Origin: an uncultured Planctomycetota bacterium
GTDB taxonomy: Bacteria; Planctomycetota; Planctomycetia; Isosphaerales; Isosphaeraceae
Length of the DNA: 64,000 bases
Assembly (NCBI GenBank): GCA_963737655.1
Contig: CAVTTN010000002.1
Coordinates: 3,264,001 to 3,328,000, forward strand
Reading direction: 5' to 3'
Made by a program: the position numbers. Below, piece after piece: positions 39,001 through 48,000 of the stretch. Position 1 is the first letter of the stretch. Each line of letters opens with the position of its first letter.

Positions 39001-42000
39001 GTGATCCTCCCAGAGTCGGAGAGGGACGGCGATCGGGCCTCGGCCCAGCCTCTCGGAGAGCGAGGCCAGGGCCTTCCTCATCGCCTCTCGGTGCTCGGGC
39101 CGCGTGAAGTCGGTCAACGGCTCGTTGCGGAACGGTGTCAAGGGACCGGACGCTTCGGCCCTGGCGGGACGCTTCCGACCGAACATCGCTCCGGTCTCCT
39201 CGGGGTTCCTCAGCAACTCGTCAATCTTCCTCTTGCCCGACGCGCTGGCCTTCAAGAACGACTCGTTCGACGTGTTTTCCAGGAGCCGGCGGACGAGATA
39301 AGCCATCCCCGGCAGCATGGCGCCATAGGGGGTGTAGACCCGGCACCGAAGGCCCTCGGCGGCCAGGGCCCGCGCGATCGGCTCGCCCATCCCGTGGAGC
39401 ACCTGGACCTCGAACGCATCGCGAGGGACGCCGAACGCCTCGGCCGCCGCCATCCCGGCCGCGAGGCTGCGGACGTTGTGACTTCCCAGGGCGGGGCGGA
39501 GGGTCCGGTAATGCTCCATCAGGAACCGGGCGCAGCGTTCGTAATTGGCGTCGGACTGCCACTTCTCGGTATAGACCGGGATCGGCCAGCCCAGCTGCTG
39601 GGCGTGGAGCACCTCGTAATCCCAGTACGCCCCCTTGACCAGCCGGATCGTGATCGGAGTTCCTCGCGAGCGGACCCAGTCGCGGAGCCGTTCGAGGTCG
39701 GCCATCGCCTCGGGCAGATACGCCTGGCAGACGATCCCCGCGTGGGGCCAGTCGCGGAACTCCGGTTCTTCCAGGACGGTTCGGAAGATCGAGTAGGTCA
39801 GATCCTTGTGAGCGTACTGCTCCATGTCGACGTTCACGAACGCGCCGACTTCCTTCGCCGTCCGCAAGATCGGCCGGAGCCGCTGGAGGACGGCCGCGGA
39901 GGTCGTCTCGGCGTGGATGGCGTCGAAACGTGTCGTGAGGCTTGTGAGCTTCAGGGAGAGATTGACGCGAGGGATGGGGCCGTCGTGGCCGCGGTCGATC
40001 GTGGGGATTTCGGCCGCGGAGTTCAGGGGGCCGGCGAGCCCTCGGAGCAGGTCGAGGCAGGTCTTCTGATAGACGTCGGCCTCGGTCTCGGAGATCACGG
40101 CCTCGCCCAGGAGGTCGGCGGTGAAGGCCAGGCCCTTGCGACGAAGCCCCTGAACGGTGACGAACGCCTCCTCGGGCGTCGATCCCGCGATGAAGCGCCG
40201 GGCCATGGTCGTTGCCGCGAACCGGGCGAGCCCGGCGAGCATGGCGTCTCCCAGGGGGCCCGGCGGGGTCAGGGCCATGGGCCCCCGGATCAGGCCCGGG
40301 ACGCGGTCGCCGGCTTCGTCCAGGTACTCGGCCAGGTGCCTCCGGGCCGATCGGGCCGAGGCGAGGGTGGGCAAGGCGTCGATGAACCGGAAAAGCTGGA
40401 CCTTGGCCTCGTCGTGGCCCATCGTCAGGCCCATCAGGCGGTCGTCCCACCAGGCCCGTTGCCAGGGGGCCGGCCCGCGGCCAATCCGGGCGAACAGGTC
40501 GCGGCCGATCTGCCTGGTGCGACCCTCCAGGTCCTCCGTCGTTGAGATCACCGCCATGCGTGCGAGGCCTCCCCCGGGTCGTCTCCCCCTCTTAGTGTAC
40601 GCTGGGCGGGTCGGGAAGGGTCGCAAATCCGAGGTCTTCGGGTCGGCGGACCGTTACCTTCGTCACGGATTGGTGTTTCAATGACGCTCGCCCCTCCTCG
40701 GGTGGTCCGCCGAGGGGCGCCGTCCGCATCCTTGCAAGGAAGAGGGAGCCTGACCGATGCAGAGCCGCCGCCGCTTCGCCCGGGTCCTCGTCTGTGGGGT
40801 GGCCGTCCTGGCCGTCCTGGTCGTGCCCGTCCTGGCCGACGAGCTGATCGGGACCGTCAAGTCCGTCGACGTCGATGCCAAGAAGCTCGTGGTCCTGGAG
40901 AAGGAAACGGACAAGGAGATCACCGTCACCGTCACCGACACCACCGAGTACGAGAGCGCCAAGGGGAAGACCAGCAAGGTGGACCTGGAGAAGATGAAGG
41001 GGAACGTCGAGAAGGCCAAGGGGAAATACGCGGTGACGATCACCCACGAGGGCGGGGTGGCGTCGAAGATCAAGGCCACGCCGAAGAAGAAGACCGAGGC
41101 GAGGTGATCTCCCGGCCGAGCAATCCGGGATTGCCCGGAATCGGGCCTCCTGGTATCGAAGGGCCTCGGGTCCGGCCCTCGGCGGCGTCTGAGCCGTTCG
41201 GGGGAGGCCGGGTCCGGCCCTCTTGATGCAGGAGGCACGTCCTCGATGAAGAACCTGACGAGGCGAGCGGCCGTCGTGGCCGGGACGATCGGCCTGATGG
41301 CCCCCGCGGCGATGGCCCAGAAGGCCCCCAAGCCCCGCAAGTACGCGAGGCTCCACAAGGCCGTCGAAGACATGGCCGCCGCCAAGGAATGGCTCAAGAA
41401 GTCCCCCGACGTCTTCGGCGGGCACAAGCAGAAGTCGATCGAGGCCATCGACGCCGCCATCGCCGAGGTCCGCGCCGGCCTGATCTACGCCAAGGACCTG
41501 TGATCGGTCCCTCACGATCGAAATTCGCCCCGGGAACGGCCCCGCCGCTTGACGCGAGGCCCCTTCCCGGGGTACACTTCCGGCATCATAATTCGGTGCG
41601 CATCTTATCCAGAGTGGCTGAGGGACGGGCCCGATGACGCCACAGCAACCGGTCCGCCATCATGGCGGACGCAGGTGCTAACTCCTGCCTGGGTCTTTTC
41701 GGACGGCTTTGCCGATCCGAGGAGGTCGCCGGGATAGATAAGATGGTCGAGGTCGGCCGCCTCGTCTCTTGAGGGCCGAGCCGATCCCCCCTTATCCATC
41801 CTGAACGTTCCCCGGGCCCTCTCGCAGGGTTCCTGGATCGAGACGCGCATCGGGCGGCCCTCGATCCCGGAGTCCCCAAGCGGTGAGCACCGACCTCGTC
41901 CTCGGCCTCAAGTGTCGCCTCTGCGGCAAGCTCTACCCCAAGGCCGCCCTGAACTTCTGCACGGACGACTTCGGCCCGTTGGAAGTGGTCTACGACTACG

Positions 42001-45000: not shown

Positions 45001-48000
45001 AAGCTCGGCAAGCCTTGGATTTTTGGCGGGGTGATCGGCAGCGAAGGCCAGACGATGACGATCCTGCCCGGGCAGACGCCCTGCATCCGGTGCGTCGTGG
45101 AGGACACGCCGCCCCCCGGGATGGCGCCGACGTGTGAGACGGCCGGCGTCCTCGGGCCGGCGGTGGCCGTCGTCGCGTCGTTCGAGGCCGCCGAGGCGCT
45201 GAAGATCCTCGCCGGCCGGACCGAGCAGTTGAACAAGAAGCTGATCATGTTCGACATCTGGGACTGGTCGTTCCGCGAGCTCAAGATCGCGGCGTTGAGG
45301 GACAAGGTCGATTGCCCCTGCTGCAAGCACAGGCAGTTCGAGTGGCTCGACGGCAAGCTCGGCTCGCACACGACCACCCTTTGCGGGCGGAACGCCGTTC
45401 AGGTCGCCACCCGGCGGAATCAGCCGCTGAACTTCGCCGAGATGGCCGGCCGGCTCGCCCCTCTGGGCGAGGTCCGGCACAATGCCTTCATGCTCCGGTT
45501 CGCGGCCGAGGGGCACGAGTTCACCGTCTTCCCCGACGGCCGGGCGATCATCAAGGGCACCAACGACATCGCCAAGGCCCGGACGCTCTACGCCCAGTTC
45601 GTCGGCAGTTGAGCATGGCCGTCCTCCGATCCACCACAAAGCCACGAAGGACTCGAAGGAAGACACAAAGAAGACAAGGGCTCCCCTCTTCTTTGTGTCT
45701 TCCTTCGAGTCCTTCGTGGCTTTGTGGTGAATCGGCCAGCCGAGTGTGACTTTGCCGCCGGCCCGGGGATCCCGACCCGCGACAGTCGCCGTGCCTTCCC
45801 CCCCGGGAGCACGACGCCTGAACGCGGGCCGGGATCCTCGGGCCGGCGGTCCGGCTCCGAGTCCTGGCGATCTCTGCGGATCGATCAGGGCCAGACGTTC
45901 TTGATCCAGGAAGCGATCTGAATGTAGATCGGGATGCCGATGGTGACGTTGAACGAGAACGTGAGTCCGAGCGAGGCCGCCAGGGGCAGAGTCGGGCTGG
46001 CCTCGGGGATCGCCAGCCTCTGGACGGCCGGGACCGCGATGTAGCTTGCCGCGGCACAGAGGACTGCGAACAGGACGTAGGTGCCCGGCTGGAAGTCCGA
46101 GTGGGTGAACTTCGAGTAGGCGTGGGCCACGAAGATGCCGATCGTCGCGAACAGGATCGGCCCGGCGATCCCGAAGACGATGTAGCCCCAGCCGGCCGTC
46201 TTCAGGTCCTTCAGCTTCCTCGACGCCGTCATCCCCATCTCCAGGAGGAAGAGGCAGAGGATGCCCTGGAACAGGTTGAGGAAGAAGTTGTCGTCCTCCC
46301 TCGTCACGGCGGCCCCTTGCTTGCCCGAGATGAACCCGATCAGGATGCCGCCGAAGAGGAGGTAGAGGCCCGGGTTGAGGAAGACCTCGTGGAGGAGCTG
46401 CGGGCTGAATCCACCCTTCTTCTTCGGAGTCCCATTGCCGTGGCCGTTGCCCTCGCCGACGACCTCCATCGACATCTTCTTCTCGTCCTGGACGCCGTGG
46501 GCGTCGCCCTCGCCGTGACCTCCGCCGTGGCCGTGCTCGCCAAGGGAGATCGGAGGCTTGGCGTTCGGGTCATAGCCCGGCTCGTCGGGCATGGTGCCGG
46601 CCGGGTCCATCCCCTGATTCCTCAGCCGGGACACCAGATAGAGCGCCACGAGGCAGCCGGGGATTTCCATCACGGCCAACATCACGGGCATGTACGCATC
46701 GTACTGCATGTTGATCGACGCCAGGACGCCGAGGCAGGTCACGAACGTGCCCGCCGAGTCCGAGCCGTAGTAGCCCGCGACCGTCGCCTTGTCGATCCGC
46801 CTCATCCGCGTCATCAAGGAGAGCCCGATATAAGCCAGCACTCCGATGACGAAGTTCGTCATGAACCCCGTGAGCATGAATCCCAACGCCTTGCCGAGGA
46901 TGCTCGAATCCAGGTTCGCGAGCTCCTCGCCCCCGTGCCAGCCGATCGCCACCAGCAGGTAGATGACCAGGGCCTGATAGACGACATACGGGAACTCGAA
47001 CTTCACGCGTAAGATCGGGACGAGGAAGCCCATGTAGAAAAAGAGGAGCAACGGCTTGAACAGGTTGTGCGTGAAATTGTGCCAGAACTCCAGGAGGGGC
47101 GGCCGATACGGCGGGAGCGGGATCGTGTGAACCTCTCCGGCGATCGCCGCGTTGGTGATGCTGACCCGCTGATCCACCTGAAGCTCTTCGAATTTCAGGG
47201 GTTCGGACTCGCCCTTGGCGAACGTCGTGTTCTCGGGGATGGCGATCCGGATCTCCTTGTGGAGCGCGCCTCCCTCGGGTTTCAGCGTGATGATCCTCTT
47301 CTCGCGATCGATTTTCTTGATGGTCCCCTTGTATTCCTGGGCGGAGGCCGTGGCGGCGGCGAGGCCGAGGAGCAGCGCGGTCATCGCGCAGGCGGTCGAG
47401 CGCAGACGCATCGAAACATCTCCTTCGATCCGAGGGGGGGGAAGCGACTCGTCGCCGGTCCGCTCCCGGGACGGAAGCGTATGAGGGACCAGGGCGACTC
47501 GGACGGGCCTCGGTCGATCCACGAAGGGCGAGGTCCAGGACCACGGCCAGGTCGTCAAGGGATCGAGGGCAAGACCAACGGCGAGCTCTGTCTCGCGGCC
47601 TCGCATCGCCGGAGGTGCCCCGACGCGCGAGAAGTGGACCGAGCCCGCCGGGAATGGTGGCGGGGCCGCGTCGCCATCAGCAACGGAGAGAGCGGCGGTG
47701 GGATGAGCGATCGATCCCGGGCAGGAGCCGACACTCCTGGACCACCCACGACCTGGGCCCGAGACCCGAGATCGAGGACGAGCTGTCGGCCGCCGGCAGG
47801 GATCGCGAAGGCTCGTCGTCCTCTTCGGCCTGGACCTCGCCCTCGTCGGTCGAGAGGCAGAAGTCCTTCAGAGGGATCGACGAATCCTCGTCCACGGCCG
47901 CGAAGGCGATCGGCGCGGGCGATGGTGCCGCGTGGCACGCAGACCCCATCGCCGAGGGGCCAGCCGGGGCTGCCGGGCCCGACGTTGTCCACGCCAACAA

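Follow-up and report, generated by a model that had tools for sequence, protein, structure and literature searches.

The question raised by this locus is what the only SAM riboswitch of a planctomycete genome controls, when the gene behind it is annotated as thrC. The window, the whole stretch of DNA that was analysed, comprises 64,000 nucleotides from an uncultured member of the Isosphaeraceae, and we compared its genome with 150 others that are ≥ 90 % complete (151 in total). The features of the locus, in window positions, are as follows.

41549..41578, + strand: tentative sigma-70-like promoter match (9/12; consensus match only)
41602..41744, + strand: SAM-I riboswitch aptamer (RF00162; 79 bits, cut-off 44.4, E 6e-17)
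41745..41882, + strand: expression platform; a conserved anti-P1 copy (CTTATCC, 41791-41797) lies inside a C-rich tract
41883..43142, + strand: MetM-like PLP enzyme, a predicted carrier-thiocarboxylate-dependent homocysteine synthase of 419 aa (PALP/TIGR00260)
43196..43465, + strand: MetO/CysO-type sulfur carrier of 89 aa with a C-terminal Gly-Gly and no extension (PF02597)
43473..44519, + strand: LRR protein gene of 348 aa, a lineage-specific insertion outside the pathway (LRR Pfams)
44530..45612, + strand: PRK12475-like ThiF/MoeB adenylyltransferase with a probable start at 44560 (PRK12475 369 bits, below the cut-off of 510)

The match to the RF00162 covariance model is full length, exceeds the gathering score and is the only one in the genome, in agreement with the survey's finding of a single SAM-I riboswitch ahead of the 'thrC' ORF that begins at 41883. 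Where the survey had counted one riboswitch per genome in 30 of 31, each of the 36 genomes of the same family sampled here carries exactly one copy, and the element is present in all 76 genomes of six riboswitch-bearing families versus 1 of 74 other Planctomycetia. The proximity of the enzyme gene to the riboswitch also held up, the distance from start to start being ≤ 1.9 kb in 74 of the 75 enzyme-bearing genomes. Two sigma-70-like matches were found in 4.6 kb, against a mean of 0.5 in shuffled sequence. Within the leader, CTTATCC pairs with the 3′ strand of P1 in the free fold; the anti-P1 motif was found in 53 of 74 leaders (9.0 expected from shuffles), and C exceeds G more than twofold in 32 of 49, versus a background of 4 %. 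Binding of SAM would stabilise helix P1 and free the C-rich tract, turning the operon off; loading of Rho on the freed tract is conceivable, if rather unlikely. An intrinsic terminator after the aptamer was rejected, there being no U-tract here and a U-rich run in just 14 of 72 leaders, as was switching of the ribosome binding site by P1, since its pairing was unchanged when P1 was forced. ATG counts of 0-8 per leader, without pattern, gave no evident indication of a Met-rich leader.

The enzyme passes the TIGR00260 threonine synthase model with 295 bits (cut-off 167) and retains the PLP lysine motif SFKDR. The NS..PYR.EG and GNAGN motifs of threonine synthases have a role in phosphate binding. 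Solved threonine synthases show NSVNPYRxEG and GNAGN, whereas the operon enzyme has NLRPFYAEGSK and MAGGSL. A second thrC ahead of dapB at C2:346 kb, at the position noted in the survey, keeps the canonical motifs (NSVNPFRLEG and GNLGN), and its product shares 30 % identity with the operon enzyme. By comparison the operon enzyme shares 52 % identity, and its motifs, with an enzyme of the actinobacterium Nonomuraea that is likewise linked to a carrier and led by SAM-I. The two group with other acidobacterial and actinobacterial enzymes behind SAM-I riboswitches in one clade (SH-aLRT 99), from which the two other ThrC-like proteins of the genome are separate. With the motifs replaced, a separate clade and a canonical second thrC, the earlier view that the thrC label is wrong appears justified. 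Predicted orthology to the Streptomyces albulus MetM (A0A059WBP2) rests on the Nonomuraea enzyme as a proxy and on second-hand descriptions. The homologs retrieved were of the Streptosporangiaceae type with none from Streptomyces, and neither the clusters of 10 representatives nor viral contigs contained one. The enzyme was found in 75 of the 76 genomes of the six riboswitch-bearing families versus none of 74 other Planctomycetia; of the 36 genomes of the same family, 35 have it at 75-86 % identity (29 of 31 at 75-88 % in the survey). Its proposal that this is the standard route of Isosphaeraceae is thus supported within the family, but the distribution extends well beyond it.

The carrier ends in AIAGG, in line with the AGG terminus reported before, and an exact GG end is found in the carriers of 71 of 75 relatives. 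Its best solved relative is CysO (3DWG, E 2e-21), and it is 47 % identical to the Nonomuraea carrier. The survey had placed a ThiF/MoeB activator next in line; both genes are in the operon, but they are not directly adjacent because the LRR gene stands between them. This gene has a GC content of ~55 %, versus 66-70 % in the enzyme gene, is missing from a genome of the same genus (G151) and has an LRR match at the equivalent place in 1 of 80 related loci. Profile matches at 44530-45612 confirm the family of the activator, for which Pfam gives ThiF only, with no rhodanese domain and an unnamed C-terminal domain. It is not of the MoeZ type, scoring 192 bits on that model against 647, over residues 19-254 only. 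In 73 of 75 genomes the distance between thiF and the enzyme gene is ≤ 7 kb, and in relatives thiF is followed by a fifth operon gene, omitted from the survey, for a TIGR01977-like cysteine-desulfurase-like protein scoring just under the cut-off of that model. This gene comes after thiF in 57 of the 62 loci with room for it, and linkage of the two was seen in 66 of the 75 genomes with the enzyme versus 1 of 63 others. Thiamine and Moco synthesis probably draw on the operon ThiF as well. Two other candidate partners were rejected: a second ThiF-like gene belongs to a different locus, where it has a JAB-domain gene next to it, and a NIL protein was found in 0 of 41 genomes.

A natural deletion bears on the function of the operon. 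In one genome (G024) the enzyme gene has been lost while the riboswitch and the carrier, thiF and desulfurase-like genes are kept; ARG replaces AGG at the end of the carrier, and metY-metX is present, as expected from the survey's statement that the genome without the thrC-like gene has MetX. This is a single case.

Supply of the substrate, which the survey had left open for want of a homoserine kinase, can be accounted for because a HomK gene (TIGR02535, 508 bits, above cut-off) adjoins hom, so that O-phosphohomoserine can be provided; ThrB was not found in the genome. The HomK family complements thrB, according to PMC13759103. Release of the product would fall to the following gene.

C2:3710597-3711007: Mec-like Prok-JAB peptidase, next to cysK

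Strong JAB matches (E<2e-15) occur in 74 of 76 genomes of the riboswitch-bearing families versus 1 of 74 others, a co-occurrence that is weakened as specific proof because the peptidase may also serve ThiS-ThiG and MoaD; this genome has a ThiS-ThiG fusion and a MoaD with the terminus GG-AAR. In the assembly, which is 87.7 % complete, we found no MetA, MetX, MetY, DUF39 or MetH, a weak MetX match belonging to PRK06489. MetH is present in 19 of 21 genomes searched, MetA in 1 of 151 and DUF39 in 0 of 151. The claim that MetX is mostly missing stands for this genome but has to be qualified for the family, where 11 of 36 genomes have a full-length MetX beside MetY, 10 of them together with the enzyme. 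The MetX and MetY pair is missing from 63 of 75 enzyme-bearing genomes and 12 keep both routes. We rejected the absence of MetX as proof of the route, and on its own it is weak evidence, because one family (f3) has MetX in 0 of 19 genomes and lacks MetY, MetA and the operon enzyme as well.

The best explanation, to which we give a probability of about 0.8, is the one the survey had favoured, that the operon encodes a predicted MetM/MetO-type synthesis of homocysteine from O-phosphohomoserine that SAM would shut off. The riboswitch, gene content and order, conservation, motifs and co-occurrence support it, and from these we infer all steps of the pathway; the co-occurrence counts represent few independent events because the genomes are related. 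Hom and HomK, encoded elsewhere in the genome, would provide O-phosphohomoserine, and ThiF would adenylate the C-terminal Gly of the carrier. The thiocarboxylate sulfur would pass from cysteine, made by CysE/CysK, through the TIGR01977-like desulfurase, which would replace a rhodanese-type sulfur ligase. The ThrC-like enzyme would then eliminate phosphate and attach the thiocarboxylate of the carrier to the gamma carbon, and the Mec-like JAB peptidase would free homocysteine from the resulting carrier-homocysteine. Homocysteine is very probably the product, while the odds that the desulfurase is the sulfur donor are about even.

The sulfur donor is the sole point on which the strongest rival differs, since it agrees on the product. 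Carrier sulfur might come from sulfide or another donor, with ThiF and the desulfurase-like protein being general cofactor genes that are merely co-regulated, which we consider doubtful but well worth weighing. Both genes are class-wide (148 and 141 of 151 genomes), both are intact in G024, and the function of TIGR01977, which the protein matches just below the cut-off, is only putative. In the genome studied the desulfurase-like gene is also detached, lying 2.2 Mb from the operon with two frameshifts, but frame breaks affect 3 of 17 conserved genes tested, so this one may stem from faulty assembly. Against this rival, ThiF and desulfurase genes lie close to one another only in the presence of the enzyme/carrier operon, and the R-x-G-x-H-C motif of the desulfurase-like protein is kept in 48 of 51. 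The survey's own worry was that the product could be cysteine. A CysM-like reaction from O-phosphoserine and the carrier thiocarboxylate would draw support from CysO being the closest solved carrier and from the Mec-like gene, which here overlaps the cysteine synthase gene at its end and is adjacent to one in 3 of 5 other loci examined. We regard it as extremely improbable: the genome carries a typical CysK that scores above cut-off, along with a CysE-like gene, the operon enzyme fails the cysKM model (42 bits against 344, compared with 295 on the thrC model), a desulfurase in the operon would create a futile cycle, and loss of the enzyme is accompanied by metY-metX.

Passing the TIGR00260 cut-off is compatible with a true or bifunctional threonine synthase/deaminase, the riboswitch mainly governing the downstream sulfur-relay genes. 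Further support comes from a Microcystis homolog, 51.6 % identical to MetM, for which the part of PMC12172450 available reports threonine synthase and deaminase activity in vitro and no rise in methionine. We nonetheless judge this very unlikely given the replaced motifs, the separate canonical thrC before dapB and the loss of the carrier Gly-Gly together with the enzyme. On thrC control, the accessible part of PMC12452182 describes T-boxes in Bacillota, and that of PMC1779556 makes no mention of threonine synthase. An unassigned Cys/Met PLP enzyme at C2:659 kb could instead be the main source of homocysteine, leaving the operon to make another SAM-related sulfur compound. All 24 own-family relatives searched have it, and it falls below every family cut-off. 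This account is if anything slightly less credible still, as that enzyme has no SAM riboswitch, is less conserved (53-71 %, and 34-40 % to the single Gemmataceae-type enzyme) and occurs also in G024 with its metY-metX, while the operon enzyme fails the cysteate synthase model TIGR03844 (63 versus 325 bits); the C2:659 kb enzyme may provide a parallel route.

If the MetM/MetO-type reading is correct, a thrC misannotation is corrected and a methionine gap closed in two large planctomycete groups. The chemistry is already published (Hasebe 2024) and the misannotation flagged by GapMind, so the surprise is modest; what differs here is the sulfur relay, through which the MetM-type pathway gains a candidate sulfur donor and the TIGR01977-like desulfurases a candidate function. 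The literature searched describes neither this operon in Planctomycetota nor a desulfurase paired with MetM, but Hasebe 2024 itself may list either. More tentatively, and at somewhat less than even odds, we suggest that the sole SAM riboswitch of Isosphaeraceae and Gemmataceae-like planctomycetes controls an entire cysteine-to-homocysteine protein relay (TIGR01977-like desulfurase, rhodanese-less ThiF, MetO-type carrier and MetM-type enzyme), amounting to transsulfuration without cystathionine, with the same ThiF/desulfurase pair loading ThiS and MoaD and with Rho possibly acting. This would tie the sulfur supply of thiamine and Moco to the level of SAM and give the TIGR01977 family a role.

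The closest known system is the MetM/MetO/Mec/MoeZ thiocarboxylate route of S. albulus (Hasebe et al. 2024, AEM 90:e01247-24), here taken from parts of PMC13759103 (Table 2/S1D) and PMC12172450. There too, a SAM riboswitch is described ahead of metM and a carrier of this type beside it (PMC12172450), and the gene is said to be often misannotated as thrC (PMC13759103 S1D). The two loci, as far as these sources describe them, share a ThrC-homologous enzyme behind a SAM riboswitch with the carrier adjacent, and their genomes an E1-like activator, a Mec-like JAB peptidase and available O-phosphohomoserine. We class the planctomycete operon as a variant because its activator is not of the MoeZ type but a rhodanese-less, PRK12475-like ThiF inside the operon, followed in relatives by the TIGR01977-like desulfurase; MoeZ is rhodanese-fused in Mycobacterium according to part of PMC3227635, which we assume for S. 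albulus. The same source describes the feeding of a rhodanese-less MoeB by a cysteine desulfurase as established for MoaD. With its terminal Gly-Gly the planctomycete carrier requires no trimming, while Mec matures MetO in the GapMind entry, and the substrate would come from HomK rather than ThrB. With the Mycobacterium CysO/CysM/Mec+/MoeZR system, as described in that part of PMC3227635, the operon shares a CysO-type carrier, a PLP enzyme whose substrate is a phosphorylated amino acid and release by a JAB peptidase; it differs in its ThrC-branch enzyme, SAM control, rhodanese-less activator and the presence of a normal CysK.

Like threonine synthase (TIGR00260; PDB 2ZSJ, 1UIM), the enzyme belongs to the fold-type II PLP family, scores above the HMM cut-off and keeps SFKDR, but it departs from it in the replaced NS/PYR and GNAGN motifs, the separate clade, the SAM riboswitch, the neighbouring carrier and the second thrC. 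In Wolinella succinogenes, Krishnamoorthy and Begley in 2011 reportedly described homocysteine formation on a carrier resembling ubiquitin, assisted by an E1 and a JAB peptidase and said to employ MetY, O-acetylhomoserine and sulfide from sulfite reductase. The genome analysed here differs in having neither MetY nor MetX, and resembles that route in the predicted assembly of homocysteine on a ubiquitin-like carrier served by an E1 and a JAB peptidase.

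The SAM-I riboswitch is the sole Rfam match in the window and the only SAM-I in the source genome (assembly of 7.63 Mb, 87.7 % complete), confirming the survey's finding of a single copy upstream of a gene annotated thrC. The elements are:

41602-41744, + strand, SAM-I riboswitch (Rfam, 79 bits)
41883-43142, same strand as the riboswitch, PLP enzyme of 419 aa, above the thrC model cut-off
43196-43465, same strand as the riboswitch, ThiS-family carrier of 89 aa, C-terminus AIAGG
43473-44519, same strand as the riboswitch, LRR protein of 348 aa
44530-45612, same strand as the riboswitch, ThiF/MoeB protein of 360 aa

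We read this as a MetM/MetO-type homocysteine operon with a misannotated thrC label, at a probability of about 0.8, in support of the survey's interpretation. The carrier and thiF genes that it reported in succession are both present, but it omitted the LRR gene between them (GC ~55 %), which is a local insertion: a same-genus genome (G151) lacks it and starts thiF ~19 bases past the carrier, and an LRR match occupies the corresponding place in 1 of 80 related loci. A short repeated/palindromic element 3′ of thiF (45613-45740) shows similarity to the final part of the LRR reading. Upstream of the riboswitch lie a putA-like gene, so named by eye (37513-40626, - strand; syntenic in 22/80 loci), and a small secreted protein (40757-41107, + strand; 16/80), for neither of which was a pathway link seen.

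For Streptomyces albulus, PMC13759103 lists MetM, MetO, Mec and MoeZ and describes MetM as often misannotated as threonine synthase. PMC12172450 places a SAM riboswitch upstream of metM and reports that a Microcystis homolog (51.6 %) has the activities of a threonine synthase and a deaminase. Two further ThrC-like genes in the source genome share 30 % and 27 % identity with the operon enzyme. The copy 5′ of dapB, already recognised in the survey as a separate thrC, retains NSVNPFRLEG and GNLGN, close to the NSVNPYRxEG and GNAGN of solved threonine synthases; in the operon enzyme their places are taken by NLRPFYAEGSK and MAGGSL. NLRPFYAEGSK is shared by a Nonomuraea enzyme (52 % identity) encoded in the same order, between a SAM-I riboswitch and a carrier (47 %). 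A Nonomuraea record of 11.85 Mb, NZ_LT559118.1 (L082), is filed as a plasmid but is evidently the chromosome. In a quick IQ-TREE phylogeny of 81 proteins, run without bootstrap, the operon enzyme and SAM-I-led acidobacterial and actinobacterial proteins form a clade (SH-aLRT 99) excluding both other ThrC-like proteins of the source genome, one of them a long branch. The third ThrC-like gene (L095, C2:3855590-3856858 on the window's contig) scores above the PRK08197 cut-off; its motifs are non-canonical and its occurrence is patchy. The best solved relative of the carrier is CysO.

The best 80 of 359 related loci are mostly from Isosphaeraceae (74-88 %) and Gemmataceae/Gemmatales (66-72 %), with two from Acidobacteriota. 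A riboswitch match lies upstream in 77, the remaining three starting too near a contig edge, and 71 of the 75 extracted carriers end exactly in Gly-Gly (two-residue extension in 3, 1 mis-extracted). Class-wide, among 150 genomes each ≥ 90 % complete, the enzyme (63-86 % identity) occurs in 75/76 genomes of the coded families f1 (that of the window, its named close loci being Isosphaeraceae), f2, f5, f7, f9 and f14 and in none of the 74 from the eleven remaining families (best E 4.6e-62). The riboswitch occurs in 76/76 versus 1/74, each of the 76 having a single match above the cut-off, and adjoins the enzyme gene in 74/75 enzyme-bearing genomes, although this family split reflects few events since the genomes are kin. 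In 18 Gemmatales-type loci, among them L065 (9217-9573), a conserved acidic protein of ~118 aa lies between carrier and thiF; Pfam and NCBIfam gave no match to it, and its atlas matches are hypothetical Planctomycetota proteins only.

The homoserine kinase that the survey could not locate is HomK, found 3′ of hom (TIGR02535, 508 bits, above cut-off); PMC13759103 shows that this family complements thrB, and ThrB was not found in the source genome. CysK is above its cut-off, a CysE-like gene below, and a Mec-like JAB gene overlaps the cysK end; strong JAB matches occur in 74/76 genomes of enzyme families versus 1/74 others. Mec+ releases cysteine from CysO (PMC3227635), and by analogy the JAB protein could release homocysteine from the carrier. 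Other likely substrates are a ThiS fused, behind its Gly-Gly, to a part judged ThiG-like by eye (L096:4850-5917, C2:3920849-3921916) and a MoaD ending in GG-AAR (L097, C2:151883-152633), 3′ of which a probable moaE appears broken across frames. MetH was not found in this 87.7 % complete genome (present in 19/21 genomes searched), and a NIL partner was found in 0/41 genomes. A 371-aa protein with the MetE catalytic domain only (6929-8044, - strand; PRK04326, 198 bits, below cut-off) is a possible candidate for the core methionine synthase.

A class-V PLP protein lies 3′ of thiF in 57 of the 62 loci where 1.5 kb or more of sequence is available, by neighbourhood clustering. This fifth, desulfurase-like gene is nearest to TIGR01977 (365 bits, under the cut-off of 377) and keeps an R-x-G-x-H-C motif in 48/51 full ORFs; in G151 the five elements are consecutive. 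Although thiF (148/151) and the desulfurase-like gene (141/151) are present class-wide, they lie ≤ 7 kb apart in 66/75 enzyme-bearing genomes versus 1/63 others, and among 22 enzyme-less genomes with both on one contig they are close together only in G024. In the source genome the desulfurase-like gene lies 5′ of uvrB at C2:1080 kb, ~81 % identical to its relatives and split over three frames; as 3 of 17 conserved genes tested in this assembly are frame-broken, assembly error and decay are indistinguishable. Besides the operon ThiF no full-length generic E1 was found there, so this ThiF probably serves all three carriers (MetO-type, ThiS and MoaD). Its unnamed C-terminal domain (residues 270-360, window 45340-45612), with LCGR invariant in 67/67 relatives, is a possible persulfide or partner-binding site. 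A second ThiF-like gene (L098, C2:6876-6884 kb), with a JAB-domain gene beside it and a protein that looks E2-like by eye further upstream, may belong to a bacterial ubiquitin-like system.

In 53/74 leaders, versus 9.0 expected from shuffles, the 5′ strand of P1 (YTYATC) recurs after the aptamer, at a median of 44 bases, and this copy is predicted to pair with the P1 3′ strand in the free fold. No intrinsic terminator was found 3′ of the aptamer, forcing P1 left the predicted RBS pairing unchanged, the freed tract is rich in C, which outnumbers G more than twofold in 32/49 (background 4 %), and Rho is present, from which we hazard the tentative guess of Rho-dependent termination.

As in the survey, MetX was not found in the source genome; nor were MetY, MetA or DUF39, and one Cys/Met PLP enzyme there remains without assigned role. 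Adjacent metY-metX occurs in 11/36 f1, 2/5 f14 and 0/31 f5 genomes (full-length matches, the curated MetX cut-off being reached in no genome). The pair is absent from 63/75 enzyme-bearing genomes, and 12 keep both routes. With operon and metY-metX both present, G020, G028, G048, G056, G076, G096, G112, G132, G144 and G148 have their only SAM-I at the operon. The enzyme-less genome with MetX noted by the survey has its counterpart in G024, the sole f1 genome without the enzyme, which carries metY-metX and whose operon still runs from riboswitch through carrier and thiF to desulfurase, with ~240 bases between riboswitch and carrier and a carrier ending in ARG, not AGG. This single case suggests that the carrier Gly-Gly is tied to the enzyme and that MetXY can replace it. 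The control family f3 lacks enzyme, MetX, MetY and MetA, and thus MetX absence alone proves little. A tandem Cys/Met PLP gene pair, frequent in lineages such as f3 (6/9 loci), where most enzyme-bearing genomes have a single such gene, is a candidate for transsulfuration straight from O-phosphohomoserine, a route that resembles that of plants. In families such as f3 without MetM-like protein, MetX, MetY, MetA or DUF39, the pair was seen at L142, L143, L144, L146, L149 and L150 (G002, G091, G051, G008, G055 and G006).

The MetM/MetO pathway itself is already published, and our literature searches turned up no description of this operon from planctomycetes. In the strict sense the operon is a putative member of that pathway: its likeness to MetM runs through the Nonomuraea enzyme and published descriptions, and its activator is of another type than MoeZ. 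The operon would work like the S. albulus pathway, and its new element is a putative sulfur relay of ThiF and desulfurase within the operon.
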